Source: an uncultured Gemmatimonadales bacterium (GTDB lineage Bacteria > Gemmatimonadota > Gemmatimonadetes > Gemmatimonadales > GWC2-71-9). Taken from it: a stretch of 64,000 bases of DNA. Position numbers: made by a program. Shown here piece by piece: positions 24,001-45,000 of the stretch (the first letter of the stretch is position 1; each line of letters begins with the position of its first letter). Where the stretch lies: positions 864,001 through 928,000 of the forward strand of contig CAWGED010000005.1 of assembly GCA_963821525.1 (NCBI GenBank), read 5' to 3'.

Positions 24001-27000
24001 GGCCTCGACGTGGGACCCTACTCCCGCTGGATCTTCATGCTGGTCGCGATCGTCGCCGTGGTCGCGCTCTACCGGATGTCGCGCAATGCGCTTCCGGGCG
24101 ACTGGTTCCGGCAGCTCTCCCTGGGCCTGGTGAGCTGGCGGTGCTGCTCGGCAATCTGGTGGACCGGGTGCGCAACTCGCAGGGCGTGGTGGACTTCCTC
24201 GACGTCGGTGTCGGCGCATACCGCTGGCCAACCTTCAACGTGGCCGACATGGCCGTGAGCTGCGGCGCCATCGCGCTCGCGATCTCGCTCTGGCGGGAAG
24301 ACGCCCGCCGGGAGACCGTGACCGAACCGACCCCAGTCGGAGTAAGGAGTAAGGAGTGAGGAGTGAGGAGTAACAGCGATTCGGACTCCTCACTCCTTAC
24401 TCCTCACTCCTCACTCACGTTCACGGTCCTCAGCGAGTCGACCGAACGGCTCGACCGCTTCCTCGCCGATCAGCTCCAATTTTCCCGAACTCAGTCCGCC
24501 CGGCTCGATCGCCGCCGGCTCGGTTACCGTCGCCGGTAAGCCCGCGCGCGCGTCGCGCCTGCTGGAGCGCGGGGATCAGGTGGTAGTCACCTTCCCCGAT
24601 CAGGAGCCGCCCCGCACCATTCAGCCGGCTCAGATTCCTCTCTCGGTAGTCTTCGAAGACGAACACCTCGCCATCATCGACAAGCCCGCCGGGTTAGTGG
24701 TTCATCCCGCGCCGGGTCACTGGCAGGACACGCTGGTGAATGCCCTCGTGGCCCGCGGCACGACGCTCTCCAGCGGGGCCGAAGGGCGTCCCGGCATCGT
24801 GCATCGTCTCGACCGCGATACCTCGGGCCTCATGGTCGTTGCCAAGACCGAGCTGGCTCATCGCCGGCTCGGTGCGGCCCTCGCGGCCCGCCGGATCAAC
24901 CGGCACTATGCGGCGCTGGTCTGGGGACATCTCGACAGCGACCCGGTCGTGATCGAAGCACCGCTCGGGCGAAATCCCCGCGACCGCAAGCGCATGGCGG
25001 TCCTTCCCGAAGGCCGTCCCGCCCGAACCGACGCCTTTCCCGTTGCCCGACTTTCACTCGTGGACCTGGTGCGGCTCGAGCTGCATACCGGTCGCACTCA
25101 CCAGATCAGAGTTCATCTCGCTCACATCGGCCATCCCGTGGTGGGCGATCCGGTCTACACCGCGGGGGGTAGCCGCCGGATGTCGAGCGACCGGCCCGGT
25201 GCGGCGGCCCTGGAACGGCTCGCTCCCCGCCAGGCGCTGCACGCCGCCTACCTCGGTTTCCGCCATCCTGCGACCGGGGAAGCCCTCGAATTTGAGGCCG
25301 GATGGCCGGCCGACCTGCAGCCTTTGCTGGTTGCGGCGCTAGGGCCCGGAAATCCCGTTGTTAATTCGGATGCCCTTCGGTATCTTCGTTTCTTTAAAGC
25401 ACATGAGTGATGTTCAGAGGCTCAGACTTGTGGTCTTCCGGGTCGGCGAAATCATCTGCGCCGTGCCTGCGGCAATTGTTCGGGAGGTCATCGCCCAGCA
25501 GCCGGCAACCCGGATCCCTGGGGCCTCGGCCGAGGTGGACGGACTCTTCAACGTCCGCGGCACGCTTTTGACTGTCTTTGACGGTCGGCGGATCCTGGAA
25601 CGGCAGGGCTCGGCCGATCGAGGACGGGTCGGTCCTGGTAATCGAGACCAACGGTCGCACCGTCGGACTCGGAGTGGACGAGGTCCTGGATCTGGTGGAG
25701 GTGCCAGCGGACAGTCTCGATCAACGAGAGGCCCTCCCCGGAATAGATCCGCGCCTGGCCCGAGCGGTGGGCCGGGCTGGACGACCGGGTCTTTGCAGTG
25801 CTCGACACCGACGCGCTGCTCGCACCGCTTCTGACCTGACGAATCAGTCTTTTCAAAAGCCCAAACGCTGCTCGCAACCGGAGGATCGCGTGAGCCATAC
25901 GGTGCTGGTCTGCGATGATGCCATCTTCATGCGCACCATGATCTCGGACATCCTTGCCCAGGCGGGATTCGAGGTCGTGGGCGAGGCGGAGACGGGCGCG
26001 AGGCGGTGAGACGCTATCGCAAGCTCAAGCCCGACCTCGTCACGATGGACATCGTGATGCCGGACATGGGCGGCATCGATGCGGTACGCGAGATCTGCAA
26101 GGAGCGATCCCGACGCCAAGATCCTGATGTGCAGCGCGATGGGACAGCAGGCCCTCGTGGTCGAGGCGATCCAGGCGGGCGCCAAGGACTTCGTGGTGAA
26201 ACCGTTCCAGCCCTCCCGGGTGCTCGAGGCGGTACAGCGCGTGCTCGGCTGAGTTCATGGATCTATCGCGCTACGCCGCGCTCTTTCAGACGGAGAGCAG
26301 GGAACACCTGGGCAGTTGCGCTCAGGCCCTGCTGGAGTGGGAGCGCGACCTCAAGGCCACCGAGCCGGTCGTCACGGTCTTTCGCGGCATGCACACCTTC
26401 AAGGGCATGGCCGCGGCGATGGGGTTCAACCACCTCACCGAGCTGGCTCACCGCACCGAAACGCTGCTCGATGTGGTCCGGAGCGATCCCGGTTCCGCGT
26501 CGCGCGAGTTGCTGGACCTGCTCTTTCGAATCGTTGATGCGCTGGAAGCCGGGGTTCCAGAGGCGGTGTCCGGCGGCGACGCGAAGCTGGACTTCACGCC
26601 GCTGCTCGAGGAGCTCGACAATGCCTCGGCGCGCTTCGGCGCCGACCGGCAGCTGGGCCATTCCGGTGCGGGAGGATCGCCCGGCCCCGGTTGCGGCTGG
26701 AGGGCGGCTGGTGCGAGTCGTCATCCGCTCCGGTACGGCGATGCGCGGCGCTCGCGCGATGCTGGCGATCCGGAAGGCCGAGGCGCTGGGCAAGGTCAAC
26801 TCCATCCGGCCGCCGGCCAGCACGTTCGAGCAGGAGGAGTTCGACGGCAAGCTCTCCTTCCGTTTCGAGGGCAGGGCCAGCGACGCCTCGCTGATTGCCG
26901 CGGTGCAGTCCGCCGGGGACGTCGCCTCGGTCCAGGTGGGTGAGGAGACCGGCGGTCGACGAGCCGGGCCGCAAGGTCGAGCGCCGCCGCCAGATCCGGA

Positions 27001-42000: not shown

Positions 42001-45000
42001 GCGCCCGGCCGATGGTGCATGCCGACCACATCGGCGCCTCGACCTTCATCGAAAAGGGATGGAGCCTCATCTCCCTCGGTGATTACGCCGGGGCGATTCA
42101 GTCGCTCGACAAGGCGCTCCAGCTTTCACCGGCGGATGTCCAGGCCCAGTCGCTGCTCGGCTGGGCCCAGATGCTCCACGAGGATTACGACGACGCGCTG
42201 GCCACCTTCTCGAAAGTCTTGATGAAGGAGCCGGCGAATTCCCTGGCCCGCATCAACGTGGGCTACATCTGCCTCAAGAAGCGGATCTTCGGAGAGGCGA
42301 TCGAGCACCTGTCCAAGGCCATCCGGCTCGACAATGACCGGAAAGCCACGCTGTACGCCCACTACTATCTCGGGCTGGTCTACCTCGAGCGGGAGATGTT
42401 CGAGGACGCCCAGACCTTCTTTCAGAAGACCCTCAACCTCGGTCCCAATCTGATCGAGGCCTACTACGAGCTGGGCCGCGCTTCCTGGTTCATGGGAGAC
42501 AAGACCGCCGCTAGCGGCGCCTGGGAAGAGGGCTTCAAGGCCAACAAGTTCAATCCGTGGGGCAAACGCTGTAAGGAAATGCTCGATCTCGTCGCCTCCG
42601 GAGGAGAGCCGCCGCGCACGTCCTCCGCCTGATCTATCTGCTGGTGCAGGCCGCAGACTCGCTGACTCACGCCATGGTCGGTCGGGTCAGAGTCGTGGCT
42701 CGGGAGAAAGATCTCGCTCTCGGCATTCGCCTCGCCGAATCGGTGGACCGCCCGTTCGCCTGGCCGGGCCTCGGCCGCCGCGCACCGCCTCCCTTTACTC
42801 TGATTCTGGCTGCCGACTCGGCGACCATGTCCCGCATCGCCAGCGGTCGTGCGCCGGGCTGGGGAGCCGGGATCACTCTGCCTTCGGCTCGCACCATCGT
42901 TCTGCGCAGCGACCTCGGCGGTCTCGACCAGACGCTGCGCCATGAAGTGGCCCATCTGGCCCTGCACGATGCAGTCCCGGGGAGAGTCCCACTCTGGTTC
43001 GATGAGGGATATGCCTCGCTGGCTTCGGGAGAGTTCGAGCGGCTGATCACGCTCCAGCTCAACCTTTCGGTGGTTGCGAGGGCGGCTGCCGTCGCTTCGG
43101 GAGCTCGATAGTGACCTGAGGGGTTCGGCCCGCACCGCCGATGCCGCCTATGGTCTCGCCGCTTCAGCGGTGGCCGAGATCGCGCGGCATCCCGCGCCGG
43201 GTGGGCTGGAGCGATTGTTCAGCCGTATGGCCGCAGGCGATGATTTCGAGCAGAGTCTCATCGCGGCAACCGGGCTGACCCTCCGACAGATTCGAGAAGT
43301 CGTGGCAGGCAGGCGTTCGCCGGCGTTACGGTTTCATCGCCTGGTTGCTCGCGGGCGGCATTTGGGCTGTGGTGGCGGCTGTCCTTGGTGTCCTCGTATG
43401 GCTGCGCCGCCGCAGCGACCGACCCCGAAGGCTGGCCCTGGACCAGGGCTGGGAGATCGCTCCCCCCGATCCGCCGCCTCCGCCCGTTGACCCGGTCGAT
43501 CCGAAGCAGTAAGCTCAATGCTTATGCCAAGTTCCGCCACTCCAACGGGTGAACGACACCTCCGGTTCGGCCCCCGAAATGTCATCCTGCTGGGGGCTGC
43601 CGTCGTCTCTCTGGTTGTGGGGTATCTTTGGTTGCATGCCGGTGGCACGACGGGTGCGGCCGCACTCCTCGTGCTCGGGTACTGCGTCCTTTTCCCTCTG
43701 GGCATTGCGCTCTGATGCTCGTTGGGTAGTGGAAGGACGCGGTTCCCGTCGGCCTGACTATTCGGGCGAATAGCTCAGCTGGTCCAGAGCGCCTGCCTTA
43801 CACGCAGGATGTCGGGGGTTCGAATCCCTCTTCGCCCATAGCGGGACGCCTGGTTGGCGGCCCGCGTGTTGTTCGGGCGGGCCTTGTGCCCCCCCTGGTT
43901 GGGCGTCCACGAGGGTCGCCCATGCGTATTTCGCTCTTCTGCTCCCTTTGCGGAGGCCATGTAATGCGCCTGGTCCGTCTGCTGTCCCTGCCGCTGTTGG
44001 CCGCGATGCCCCTCGCGGCTCTTTCTGCCCAGATTCCCACTCGCCGTCCGGCACCGGGGGCTCCGACCGCCAACGCGCCCCGTTTGCTGGTAGCGAACCC
44101 CCATACGTTTTCGACTCAGGATTCCGCCTCCAGCGTCCTGATCGGTCAGGGAATTCGGGGCCGGATGGAGAAGGTGGTCGGCGTCCAGTTTCGCTGTTCT
44201 CGACCCGGGAACAGATGAACGACGCGCTGAAGCAGTTCGGCTATCCACCCGATGCGATCCTCGCCTCCACGGTCCAGAAGCAGTTCGGTAACGCCCTTCA
44301 GGCCCGCGCGCTGGTCTCTTCGACTCTTTCCAAAGATCAGAGTGGCCGCTTCTCGGTGACCTCGCGGCTCGCGGGCCTCAACGACGACGCGGGCAATGTG
44401 GTGGTCGTAACTCAGGCGCGCGAGCCAGAAGCTGGATGAAATGGGCGGCTCGGTCGCCGATGCGTTGCAGCCCGCGGTCAAGAGCTTCAACGATGCGCGG
44501 GCCTGCATCGATCAGAGCAAGGCGGCGCCGGACAAGGCCATCGCCTCGGCCAAGAAGGCTATCACCGCACTTCCGAAGAATGGTCTGGCCCATCTCTGCC
44601 TCGGACTGATCGCGCTGGACAAGAAGACGAACAAGGACAGCGCCGAGGCGATGGAGCATCTGCAACAGGGGGTGGAAGGAGACCCGCTGAGTCTCAAGGG
44701 CTGGACTACTCTCGCGCAGATCTACGAGGCTAAGGGCGACACGAACAAGACGGTGGACGCGCTGAAGCAGATGCTGCTGGTCGCACCCACCAACCAGACC
44801 CTGCGCGAGCAGGCCTTCAAGCTGTTCATCAAGTACGAGCGTCCCGACGCCGCCGAGCAAACCGCCTTGGACGGGCTCAAGATCGACCCGACCAACGCCG
44901 ATCTCTATGACCTGCTGAGCAACGCCCGGGTCTTCAAGGGCGATTTCGCGGGAGCGGTCGCCGCGCTGGAGCAGATGGTGGCCAATGATTCCACCAAGGC

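Follow-up and report, generated by a model that had tools for sequence, protein, structure and literature searches.

In a 64,000-nucleotide stretch of DNA from an uncultured Gemmatimonadales bacterium (hereafter the window), the gene between mglA and a PATAN(DUF4388)-TPR gene encodes a protein with two DnaA-domain-III-like AAA+ modules, which looks as if a replication-initiator ATPase had been put to new use in the control of cell polarity or motility. Gene order, co-occurrence and a single structure prediction make it somewhat probable, in our view, that this tandem protein serves an MglA/Che/PATAN polarity-motility module as a nucleotide-driven switch or scaffold. A literature search found no paper on the tandem DnaA-III protein.

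The two DnaA-like genes are a single open reading frame

A preliminary description of the region had listed two tandem DnaA-family genes, g01780 with a lost N-terminus and g01781 with a 70-aa N-terminus of its own. In reality they form one gene at 34856-36888 (+ strand), since 35 related genomes have the two halves joined in a single ORF, 642-677 aa long except for one C-terminally shifted copy of 609 aa. The N-terminus thought to be lost is present in two other frames, and the 70-aa stretch forms the final part of a conserved middle domain.

Indels were called against G001, a genome of the same genus whose DNA is 95% identical across the tandem gene. Relative to G001, one base is missing from the window near 34953, and there is one base too many near each of 35039, 35617/8 and 35845. 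Short-read contigs from four public runs (X1, X2, X4 and X15, comprising three DNA metagenomes and one RNA library) carried the G001 state at 35039 in every contig of all four runs and at 35845 in every contig of the two covering runs. At 35617/8 this state was found throughout X2 and X4 and in two contigs of X1, while at 34952/3 it accounted for 13.1 of a depth of 22.7 in X1, 17.7 of 21.4 in X2, and the entire depth in X4 and X15. The two-gene model with one truncated copy is an assembly artefact, as the preliminary description had itself cautioned for g01780.

The four frame breaks could also be read as decay, with the two genes being functionless broken remnants of a dnaA duplicate. We regard this as extremely improbable, because neither G001 nor the short-read contigs of the four runs have the breaks, similar indels occur along the whole stretch (23 gap positions against G001 in the 10.5 kb from 32725 to 43243, 20 of them extra bases in the window), and 35 genomes conserve the unbroken ORF with its catalytic motifs invariant. 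For the lineage, the pseudogene reading is refuted. The ileS, lspA, cheA, cheB and TPR genes of the window are similarly split by frameshifts.

The tandem protein pairs a complete DnaA domain III with a second, variable module

The features of the gene are as follows.

34856..36888, +: tandem DnaA-domain-III protein gene (one ORF in relatives; DNA aligned to G001; two Bac_DnaA matches)
34953..35845, no strand: four single-base, frame-breaking assembly indels (against G001 and short-read contigs X1, X2, X4, X15)
34856..35563, +: module 1, complete DnaA domain III, AAA+ plus lid (G001 residues 1-236; 8BV3 match, Foldseek)
35564..35702, +: variable, Pro/Ala-rich linker (AF2 pLDDT <50 at residues 242-285; length variation in the alignment)
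35703..36093, +: helical middle domain (residues 283-412; AF2 helices, pLDDT 82-98)
36094..36747, +: module 2, DnaA-III-like AAA+ plus lid (residues about 413-630; second Pfam Bac_DnaA stretch)
36814..36885, +: predicted C-terminal docking motif (residues 653-676: GLRSREKMVWDWPSLTDRVIEDLR) after a disordered linker (conservation; complex prediction)

The full-length product of ~676 aa is matched twice by Pfam Bac_DnaA and also by IstB_IS21. The order of parts in the intact protein is DnaA domain III module 1, disordered linker, helical repeat, module 2, disordered linker and C-terminal motif. An AF2 model (mean pLDDT 85.9) placed disorder at residues 242-285 and 633-662; its pTM of 0.49 means that the relative placement of modules 1 and 2 is not fixed by the model.

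Module 1 matched domain III of Bacillus subtilis DnaA (8BV3) at E 1e-57, and by Foldseek at a target-normalised TM of 0.95 and an rmsd of 1.5 A. Its Walker A (GLGKTH), Walker B (DDVQF), box VII (R154/R158) and sensor II (R207) motifs are invariant or almost so; judged by these motifs, every one of the 32 aligned orthologues has a module 1 that is fully equipped as an ATPase. In the window, module 2 carries Walker A (GVGKTH) and Walker B (DDIH). Both motifs are gone in the three examined orthologues from families f4 and f7, which keep the box VII arginines R546/R550 that are invariant across orthologues. Since these arginines are always retained while the Walker motifs are sometimes lost, the constant role of module 2 is probably that of an arginine-finger donor or a partner surface for ATP-bound module 1.

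The middle domain (motifs DEFxxF, W.GEGYR..RL..LL and RDPDR) is a single copy of a repeat found elsewhere in long arrays: a profile search returned 477 cluster representatives, including proteins with 6-23 tandem copies. It matched no Pfam family, and a fold search gave no specific match (top Z 6.0). Among other proteins lacking domain IV, DnaA-III is fused to MshEN, to a T2SSE ATPase (in a MAG that bears the name Thermoplasmata) or to arrays of this same helical repeat. The C-terminal tail has the consensus SREKxVWDWP..E, in which E658, W664 and E673 are invariant and S656, K659, V661 and W662 are conserved at 90% or above.

The tandem gene is coupled to mglA and a PATAN-TPR gene within a che operon

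The preliminary description had reported MglB-like Roadblock, PATAN and Che neighbours, and Pfam recovers them all.

25358..31464, +: upstream section of the operon, with cheW, cheY fragment, cheA, cheC plus a long TPR gene, frameshift-split (Pfam CheW, Response_reg, P2, HATPase_c, CheC, TPR; intact counterparts in loci L061-L063)
31468..33714, +: second PATAN/TPR gene and TPR/Roadblock gene, frameshift-split (Pfam DUF4388, TPR, Robl_LC7; intact in L061-L063)
33790..34250, +: mglB-like Roadblock gene, with an extra base near 33822 in the window (MglB match; tblastn in related loci)
34257..34859, +: mglA, Ras-like polarity GTPase (Myxococcus xanthus MglA 5YMX, Thermus thermophilus MglA 3T12)
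36888..38505, +: PATAN(DUF4388)-TPR gene (Pfam; product of 538 aa in G001), broken in the window by an extra base near 37136
37056..37218, +: PATAN helical insertion with two MshE-type c-di-GMP-binding motifs (residues 57-110; NF053729)
38518..42632, +: downstream section of the operon, with cheR, cheD, cheB, cheW and a TPR gene (Pfam CheR, CheD, CheB_methylest, Response_reg, CheW, TPR)

The mglA product matched 5YMX at E 1e-72 and 3T12 at 1e-67, and a same-genus MglB-like protein matched MglB (6H5B_B) at E 4e-8. The tandem gene starts with a GTG that shares bases with the stop codon of mglA (GTGA) and ends in a TGA that shares a base with the ATG start of the PATAN-TPR gene (TGATG); it is translationally coupled to both. 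In G001, the ORFs of the downstream operon part are packed tightly. The PATAN-TPR gene lies immediately downstream of the tandem gene in 28/28 genomes examined. The earlier doubt about which DnaA-family gene neighbors PATAN is settled: it is the paralogue and not canonical dnaA. The window, G001 and all three other examined genomes of the order have the mglB-mglA pair directly upstream of the tandem gene. In the one genome of family f4, an MglB-like gene but not mglA is upstream, and in three genomes of family f7 neither lies within 20 kb of the tandem gene.

Conservation through the order, as previously claimed, was borne out: of 264 genomes sampled from the order, 240 had the protein-specific middle domain, as did 32 of 117 from the rest of the class. 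The domain was not found in 127 of the 401 sampled genomes of the phylum, including family f6 (0/30), and the tandem protein is absent from most of the phylum outside its class. When MglA was scored at E<=1e-40 in these 401 genomes, 272 had both MglA and the middle domain, 41 MglA only, 2 the middle domain only and 86 neither, although this table overstates the association because kin are not independent. Carriers of the middle domain are nearly nested within MglA-positive genomes (272/274). An adjacent-type MglA match without a middle-domain match was seen in four genomes of genus g21 and in G131, G183 and G097.

Predicted docking of the C-terminal tail on the PATAN-TPR protein

Complex prediction for the tail and the PATAN-TPR protein gave ipSAE values of 0.69, 0.73 and 0.75 in three runs, compared to 0.00 for the best of three controls. 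The mark we used is one that 116 of 157 solved complexes reach, as do 2 of 215 mismatched pairs, counts that are only rough with our own alignments, which are shallow (26 and 32 rows, nearly all from one class); since TPR-peptide complexes are a well-solved class, a passing score may also partly reflect likeness. The runs had at least 61% of contacts in common, with partner pLDDT of at least 74. In the predicted interface, tail residues 653-676 lie against TPR residues 283-493, and groove residues N322, R352, K363, W392, L396, N426, N427, E433, Q457, K460, N461, D464 and D492 are retained by 20-26 of the 26 sequences. The tail is thus predicted to dock in the PATAN-TPR groove.

The PATAN insertion scored 49.4 bits against NCBIfam NF053729 (cut-off 38). 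Its two motifs (RIGDLLVKNG..L..AI..Q and KLGELLVE.G..L..YI..Q), kept in 26/26 sequences, are of the MshE type as defined in PMC5013675. A study of cyanobacterial regulators describes PATAN domains that bind the PilB1 N-domain and PilC, which are type IV pilus motor components (bioRxiv 10.1101/2021.06.11.447907). The genome analyzed here has six T2SSE ATPase matches, two of them an adjacent pair.

Rather than a switchable scaffold, the protein could be an AAA+ assembly factor or remodeller that uses ATP to load, assemble or dismantle a machine (the base of the type IV pilus, a chemosensory array or the MglA-MglB complex, for example), with PATAN-TPR as substrate adaptor. DnaC and IstB, relatives in the initiator clade, are loaders, and the IstB_IS21 match, the predicted tether to a TPR adaptor, the location inside a che and mgl operon and the T2SSE fusion in the Thermoplasmata MAG would all fit. 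However, the data point to no substrate, the initiator clade is not known to have the pore loops of unfoldases, and some members of the family have a degenerate module 2. We consider this reading unlikely, though the most credible of the alternatives to the scaffold. A nucleic-acid-handling ATPase, with modules that bind single-stranded DNA (for example in type IV pilus uptake) or tether the nucleoid to the pole, is very improbable. The initiator-type fold is conserved, and the alignment shows a basic residue after Walker B in both modules, a position with a described role in DnaA, but there is no domain IV, the operon has no visible DNA-uptake or DNA-processing genes, and the conserved tail and its TPR partner would be left unexplained.

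The tandem protein is distinct from canonical DnaA and from Hda

As previously described, the tandem protein lacks the C-terminal domain IV (no Bac_DnaA_C at E<=1), and it also lacks domain I. Across all frames of the whole assembly, the sole Bac_DnaA_C match (E<=0.1) belongs to canonical dnaA on a different contig (G000:C4:234198-234404), and the tandem gene never adjoins dnaA or dnaN in the loci read. Its N-terminus (MSTPLNPRY...) has no clamp-binding motif. Without domain I, domain IV or this motif, the protein would be neither an initiator nor Hda.

In a quick rather than careful IQ-TREE search, modules 1 and 2 each formed a clade (SH-aLRT 92 and 99), and both fell outside the canonical DnaA clade (SH-aLRT 95), which includes this phylum's own dnaA. 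Module 1 is 45-46% identical to the phylum's own DnaA and 42-43% to that of B. subtilis (Foldseek), a resemblance equal to that between genuine DnaA proteins, and it is so DnaA-like that it may oligomerise with DnaA or bind single-stranded DNA.

The preliminary description had offered two interpretations, of which recruitment of a DnaA-derived ATPase for polarity fits the coupling to mglA and PATAN-TPR, the near-nesting in MglA genomes, the absence from most of the phylum outside the class and the predicted tail docking. The other, which it had put first, an Hda-like link to replication, is not supported. In that case the tandem protein would join DnaA-ATP oligomers and stimulate hydrolysis by arginine fingers or block filament growth, and replication initiation would follow MglA, c-di-GMP or polarity state. 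Such a role keeps a small probability because module 1 retains every DnaA ATPase and box VII motif and its close match to domain III, module 2 covers the NCBIfam Hda model end to end (positions 12-226 of 226), and R546/R550 are invariant even where module 2 has lost ATP binding, as an arginine donor would require. Nevertheless, the Hda model score of 178.9 bits is under the cut-off of 194.8, and the missing clamp motif, the tandem architecture, the position of both modules in the tree and the lack of dnaA or dnaN adjacency argue against it. Furthermore, the protein's occurrence follows MglA, with 127 phylum genomes in which it was not found, whereas dnaA is to our knowledge universal in bacteria, and the predicted partner of its tail is PATAN-TPR.

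A working model

If the tandem protein is a switch or scaffold, its tail would hold the adjoining PATAN-TPR protein by the TPR groove, and ATP binding and hydrolysis could drive the assembly and release of PATAN-TPR adaptors at a pole of the cell, a pilus machine or a chemosensory machine. This adaptor cycle may, in Gemmatimonadales, be under the control of MglA/MglB and a Frz-like Che pathway. Module 2 would serve module 1 either within one molecule or head-to-tail between molecules, a supply of arginines that resembles the arrangement in DnaA oligomers and the action of Hda on DnaA.

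One gene encodes both DnaA-like modules

Gene content of the loci was taken from Pfam-positive open reading frames (ORFs) and tblastn. In the window, Pfam matches on long ORFs gave the following gene order:

ileS, a dksA-type zinc-finger gene, lspA and an rluD-type pseudouridine synthase gene, + strand, first in the order
cheW, a cheY fragment, cheA and cheC, + strand, after the rluD-type gene
a long TPR gene, a PATAN(DUF4388)/TPR gene and TPR/Roadblock genes, + strand, after cheC
an MglB-like gene, mglA (34257-34859), two Bac_DnaA ORFs and a PATAN/TPR gene (36888-38505), + strand, after the TPR/Roadblock genes
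cheR, cheD, cheB, cheW and a TPR gene, + strand, after the PATAN/TPR gene at 36888-38505

About 5 kb downstream of the che genes lies an ordinary division and cell-wall cluster (47566-55524; ftsI-type transpeptidase, murE, murF, mraY, murD, ftsW). Two further ORFs, at 16136-18139 (+) and 58239-60584 (-), run for 668 and 782 codons from stop to stop with coding-type GC3, and neither has a Pfam match at E<=1e-4.

The G+C content of the region is high (0.63-0.69), and nearly all long genes of the window are distributed across two to three frames, among them CheW (25358-25834 and 25578-26009), CheA (in three ORFs), ileS (19951-23292) and lspA (23830-24359). The preliminary description had taken the two Bac_DnaA ORFs for two tandem DnaA-family genes, g01780 and g01781, the first of which had probably lost its N-terminus. 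When the frames are read from stop to stop, the missing N-terminal half of g01780, including GSGLGKTH, is present in two other frames right after mglA. In relatives, both Bac_DnaA matches fall within a single open frame of 570-900 aa. From 35 genomes we extracted intact ORFs, 642-677 aa long apart from a C-terminally shifted copy with 609 aa; the last stretch is shifted in one further copy. Each extracted ORF has a GTG or ATG start four codons ahead of LNPRY, with a GGAG-like site upstream in most.

Compared with G001, a genome of the same genus, the window gene carries four single-base indels, near positions 34953, 35039, 35617/8 and 35845. At all four sites the G001 state was found in Logan contigs, which are Illumina-type assemblies of close relatives, from three DNA metagenomes and one RNA library. 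The contigs of the RNA library (sequencing run X15) span 34840-35244, 35420-35594 and 35846-36017, although such coverage does not demonstrate transcription. Over 10.5 kb of synteny with G001 (window 32725-43243) we counted 23 gap positions, and at 20 of them the window has the extra base; the host assembly is 81% complete and consists of 19 contigs. We conclude that the split is an error of the host assembly, or at most private to the strain, and that the lineage has a single gene at 34856-36888 (+), so that the two genes first described are one and no N-terminus was lost. This tandem gene shares bases with both neighbours: its start codon with the mglA stop (GTGA), and its stop codon with the start of the downstream PATAN/TPR gene, hereafter PATAN-TPR (TGATG).

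Indel-rich long assemblies can thus generate false "truncated paralogues". Any "truncated" or "duplicated" gene of the host genome needs comparison with relatives, since most long genes of the region are split, including the essential ileS.

The tandem protein joins two DnaA-III modules through a helical repeat

Residue numbers below are those of the G001 orthologue (676 aa).

Parts of the tandem protein
Residues 1-236: module 1, DnaA domain III; E 1e-57 to B. subtilis DnaA domain III (PDB 8BV3)
Residues 242-285: variable linker; AF2 pLDDT <50
Residues 283-412: conserved helical middle domain; pLDDT 82-98
Residues about 413-630: module 2, DnaA-III-like; GxGKT and DD kept in Gemmatimonadales
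Residues 633-652: disordered stretch
Residues 653-676: conserved tail motif, (S)REKxVWDWP...R..E(D/E)

Pfam Bac_DnaA matches the tandem protein twice, with 329 bits together. Module 1 is a complete domain III, having Walker A and B, sensor I, the box VII arginines, sensor II and the lid, and its AF2 model superimposes on 8BV3 with a TM score of 0.95 (normalised to the target) and an rmsd of 1.5 A. Across 32 sequences there is little or no variation in its Walker A (G48-H53), Walker B (D108/D109), R154, R158 and R207; R154 never varies, and R158 is conserved in at least 90%. In module 2, both GxGKT (Walker A) and DD (Walker B) are gone from L057, L058 and L060, the three examined orthologues of class families f4 and f7, which retain the middle domain and the tail despite this degenerate module. 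R546 and R550 of module 2 are invariant throughout, including in the proteins that lack Walker A and B. Judged from these alignments, R154/R158 and R546/R550 are candidate arginine fingers that could act on a neighbouring ATP site.

Domain III starts after just four residues, the N-terminus reading M(S/T)xxLNPRYRF in 8 aligned orthologues, and the tandem protein has no DnaA_N match at E<=1. Likewise it has no match to Bac_DnaA_C at E<=1, and across six frames of the host genome Bac_DnaA_C matches only the canonical dnaA, on contig C4, so the description of a DnaA-like protein without DNA-binding domain IV holds. The middle domain has no Pfam match. A fold search of its model against 48,161 chains gave Embp, the myosin VI lever arm and EzrA as best matches, with Z at most 6.0; we dropped all three as generic helical matches. 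The tail motif is still recognisable in f7 proteins, and a variant form occurs in tandem proteins from other sources, e.g. P0311, which is named Candidatus Cloacimonetes.

The tandem ATPase and PATAN-TPR form the constant unit of the locus

The gene upstream of the tandem gene encodes a true MglA, matching M. xanthus MglA (5YMX) and also 6H17 at E 1e-72, and T. thermophilus MglA (3T12) at 1e-67, over residues 1-197. The gene ahead of it is MglB-like, with E 4e-8 to 6H5B_B, and these two matches bear out the earlier placement of the DnaA-like gene beside mglA and an MglB-like Roadblock gene. The whole cluster is arranged as in the window in G001 and in three genomes from families f2 and f3: cheY-cheA-cheC-TPR-PATAN/TPR-TPR/Roadblock-mglB-like-mglA-tandem gene-PATAN/TPR-cheR-(cheD)-cheB-cheW-TPR.

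PATAN-TPR (537-553 aa, N-terminus MAIKGSLKEASLPDVLQLL) begins at the tandem-gene stop in 28 of the 28 genomes examined (21 by ORF search, 7 by Pfam). An f4 genome has the order Roadblock, mglB-like, tandem gene, PATAN/TPR, cheW, with mglA not in between. In three f7 genomes (loci L057-L059), the tandem gene and PATAN-TPR come after ileS or ileS-rluD; mgl or che genes were not found within 20 kb, and MglA is encoded elsewhere in those genomes. Since the pair is kept in f4 and f7 loci where the mgl/che context differs, the constant unit is the tandem ATPase plus PATAN-TPR, and mgl and che genes surround this pair in Gemmatimonadales. A sigma-54 activator with a receiver domain lies a few genes downstream at L057-L059, and two of these loci also have a Peptidase_MA_2 gene or a histidine kinase.

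Complex prediction was run on the PATAN-TPR sequences (26 alignment rows) together with the tandem protein from residue 283 to 676 (32 rows). Three runs gave ipSAE values of 0.69, 0.73 and 0.75 (best of three controls 0.00), judged by a mark that 116 of 157 solved complexes and 2 of 215 mismatched pairs attain and that holds only roughly with our own alignments. The runs had at least 61% of contacts in common, with a partner pLDDT of at least 74. The confident predicted interface consists only of tail residues 653-676 in the TPR groove (residues 283-493), and the tightest predicted pairs join E658-W664 to residues 389-464. Groove residues are kept in 20-26 of the 26 sequences, and the Asn and Lys residues among them resemble those that we take to be typical of peptide-binding TPR clamps. 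The prediction supports tail binding but does not show it, and likeness to TPR-peptide complexes, which are common in the PDB, may have raised the score. Docking of the tail in the TPR groove is therefore put forward as predicted.

The PATAN domain itself (Pfam PF14332, gathering cut-off 25) scores 124-139 bits in intact orthologues; the first fragment in the window reaches 74 bits. Residues 57-109, which form a helical insertion of this domain, match NF053729 with 49.4 bits (cut-off 38), an NCBIfam model of 53 residues and two motifs named [quoted passage not shown]. Two 24-residue motifs of the form RLGxxhhxxGhhxxxxLxxxLxxQ, the MshEN motif as defined in the account of Wang et al. (PMC5013675), are retained in 26 of 26 PATAN-TPR sequences, with R/K, G, L and Q conserved. 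We predict from this match that the insertion is a putative c-di-GMP receptor site.

The tandem protein is widespread in Gemmatimonadales and co-occurs with MglA

The middle domain (P0121) was searched against 401 genomes of the phylum; the group counts are given without the host assembly, and the tallies include the unpublished genomes G018, G078, G116, G172 and G197, on which none of our other statements depends. Among the genomes searched, closed ones with the gene include G087, G122, G152 and G272.

Genomes with a middle-domain match
Gemmatimonadales: 240/264 (f1 161/166, f2 74/93, f3 5/5)
Other families of the class: 32/117 (f4 5/7, f5 2/2, f6 0/30, f7 21/70, f8 4/4, f9 0/4)
Rest of the phylum: 1/19 (lone match with E 8e-4, probably chance)

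In the same 401 genomes, MglA is present at E<=1e-40 in 313. Both MglA and the middle domain were found in 272 genomes and neither in 86, while 41 have MglA without the middle domain and 2 (G126 and G049) have the middle domain without MglA. Because relatives are not independent, these counts are presented without a test.

A phylum-wide search with window 34257-34859 gave two MglA-like genes in most genomes of the order: one beside the tandem ATPase, with E about 1e-85 to 1e-116, and a second, more distant one with E about 1e-55 to 1e-66. Where the tandem protein is missing, mostly just the distant gene remains. The exceptions, with an adjacent-type MglA match but no middle-domain match, are four genomes of genus g21, G131, G183 and G097.

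DnaA-III modules without domain IV occur in a wider set of proteins

Among 1.84 billion cluster representatives, the middle-domain profile matched 477 with E<=1e-3. The matches comprise tandem proteins of about 650 aa and proteins of 850-3143 aa that contain 6-23 tandem copies of the domain core; the middle domain is thus one copy of a helical repeat of about 95 residues (W..EGY.v..LE ... L.dP..v..aE) that no Pfam family covers. P0122, P0123, P0130, P0146, P0151, P0153, P0159, P0243 and P0260 carry 7-23 copies in a row and are up to 3143 aa long; of these, P0153 (with DUF835) and P0159 are named Thermoplasmata archaeon.

In P0138 and P0161, eight repeat copies are followed by a DnaA domain III without domain IV. 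A small N-terminal domain precedes the repeats in these proteins (also in P0291-P0309), and C-terminal zinc ribbons are frequent. The C-terminal parts of proteins of this type are 55-65% identical among themselves by BLASTP. For the first 120 residues of P0138, Pfam gave a chance-level match alone (E 0.11), and comparing the PATAN-TPR alignment with P0138 by hhalign gave no significant match (probability 0.2). Atlas look-alikes of its N-terminal part, which serve as leads, are archaeal hypothetical proteins (0.90), DUF2226 (0.86) and a cluster in which 12% of the members carry PatA_N (0.84). No relatives of P0138 were found in genome contigs or metagenome contigs.

Long proteins searched with the P0138 C-terminus and then scanned with Pfam yielded further architectures. 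P0279 and P0283 (1867-1994 aa) consist of MshEN, DnaA-III, a long middle region of about 1200 aa and a second DnaA-III; proteins P0279-P0287 (1867-1999 aa) share this plan and have no domain IV. DnaA-III also occurs without domain IV together with a T2SSE secretion/pilus ATPase in P0345, from a MAG named Thermoplasmata archaeon, and with DUF835 in P0325 and P0330. A candidate fusion of two DnaA-III modules to PATAN, P0328, was rejected as probably a deletion or misassembly: its tail meets PATAN residue ~35 directly (at residues about 630-650), and the join skips the last tail residues and the first ~34 PATAN residues.

A quick maximum-likelihood search on 66 domain III sequences placed all module 1 sequences of tandem proteins in one clade (SH-aLRT 92), all module 2 sequences in another (99), and canonical DnaA from about a dozen phyla, including Gemmatimonadota dnaA, in a third (95). 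A locus search with P0283 returned only canonical dnaA loci, which were used as outgroups in the tree. Since the two modules and canonical DnaA form separate clades, the tandem architecture is old and no recent copy of the organism's own dnaA. The repeat-, DUF835- and T2SSE-fused domains lie beside the canonical clade, their branching order without resolution.

A possible role in polarity

The known roles of DnaA-type ATPases are opening the origin (DnaA), inactivating that opener (Hda) and loading (DnaC, IstB). We class the tandem protein as an initiator-clade AAA+ protein whose architecture and functional context are both new. Full-text searches turned up no description of a DnaA-like ATPase together with MglA, PATAN or MshEN, although such genes may be listed in the supplementary tables of PMC4316618 (MglA gene neighbourhoods) and PMC5013675 (MshEN architectures).

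We tentatively suggest, giving it somewhat less than an even chance, that DnaA domain III was recruited long ago, and more than once, to serve cell-polarity and type IV pilus-like machineries as a non-replicative ATP switch. The tandem protein of Gemmatimonadetes would polymerise or close on ATP like DnaA, its C-terminal peptide would hold c-di-GMP-sensing PATAN-TPR adaptors, and it would be a missing core part of an MglA/Frz-type polarity module. More probable than this wide scenario is its core: an ATP-dependent switch or scaffold that would gather PATAN-TPR adaptors for a polarity machine or type IV pilus controlled by MglA and Che, with module 2 perhaps acting as arginine donor or as partner surface for module 1. 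The relatives without domain IV that carry MshEN, a T2SSE ATPase, DUF835 or repeat arrays point to the same functional neighbourhood elsewhere, including in Thermoplasmata-named MAGs.

If this is true, the wiring of a conserved tandem DnaA-III protein to MglA, Roadblock, Che and a c-di-GMP/PATAN adaptor would put the initiator fold to a new use and bring a new player into bacterial front-rear polarity, so far studied almost only in Myxococcus. The predicted contacts between tail residues W662 and W664 and groove residues N427, K460 and N461 are open to direct test, as are the arginine fingers and the c-di-GMP motif.

Comparison with known systems

With the MglA/MglB and Frz systems of M. xanthus, the cluster shares a same-group MglA, Roadblock proteins and a full che set, here in one operon; unlike in this cluster, a DnaA-like ATPase is not described there in the literature found. 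Pfam scans of the operon gave no RomR-type protein, no search aimed at RomR, RomX or FrzS individually having been made. PATAN neighbours of mglA and mglB are on record in the account of Wuichet and Sogaard-Andersen, which also places group 1 MglA in Gemmatimonadetes (PMC4316618).

Like cyanobacterial PixE, PixG and PatA, the partner has a PATAN domain with a helical insertion, but this domain is joined to TPR repeats rather than to a receiver domain, and the groove is predicted to hold an AAA+ tail. The PATAN domain of Synechocystis binds the PilB1 N-domain and PilC and determines the direction of movement (10.1101/2021.06.11.447907). The genome of the window has six T2SSE-family ATPase matches, including an adjacent pair. 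With MshEN, the PATAN insertion has in common that it passes the NF053729 double-motif model; in contrast to MshEN, the motifs are separated by a spacer of 6 residues rather than 5, and motif II opens with K or R. A true MshEN domain occurs together with two DnaA-III modules in the giant proteins P0279 and P0283.

The likeness to DnaA lies in the complete domain III of module 1 and the more distant copy in module 2. Unlike DnaA, the tandem protein lacks domains I, II and IV, has two modules per chain together with the helical repeat and a tail predicted to dock in TPRs, and is encoded outside the dnaA-dnaN locus, and both modules branch outside the canonical clade. The DnaA equivalog model TIGR00362 gives it 489 bits (cut-off 343.9), but this total exceeds the cut-off only because two partial matches (model positions 102-339), from modules 1 and 2, are added together. 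The summed score explains names such as "chromosomal replication initiator protein DnaA", found in databases beside "DnaA/Hda family protein" and "AAA family ATPase". It probably gives rise to spurious second "dnaA" genes when genomes of the class are annotated, which can mislead origin prediction and counts of dnaA copies.

Hda carries an N-terminal clamp-binding motif of the QL(S/P)LF type. The tandem protein resembles Hda and HdaA as a DnaA-derived AAA+ protein without a DNA-binding domain, with a conserved putative arginine finger and a module 2 that aligns along the whole Hda model, and the preliminary description had proposed Hda-like regulators that link replication to polarity. Module 1 is so DnaA-like that some cross-talk with DnaA may occur. 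However, a clamp-binding motif is absent from the N-terminus of 8 aligned orthologues, the Hda model TIGR03420 gives 178.9 bits, under its cut-off of 194.8, and the HdaA models give 55-60 bits against about 300. Rather than a single AAA+ module of ~230 aa, the protein has 642-677 aa, about three times the length of Hda; its operon partners are MglA, PATAN-TPR and Che genes; and its patchy distribution, in only part of the phylum, fits a replication regulator poorly. We therefore consider an Hda-like role improbable and favour, tentatively, the switch of a polarity machinery.

DnaC, DnaI and IstB belong to the same AAA+ clade, and IstB_IS21 matches both modules at E 1e-18. Unlike these proteins, the tandem gene has no helicase-binding or transposase context, and its modules are far closer to DnaA; DnaC, DnaI and IstB are precedents for DnaA-like ATPases acting away from origin melting.
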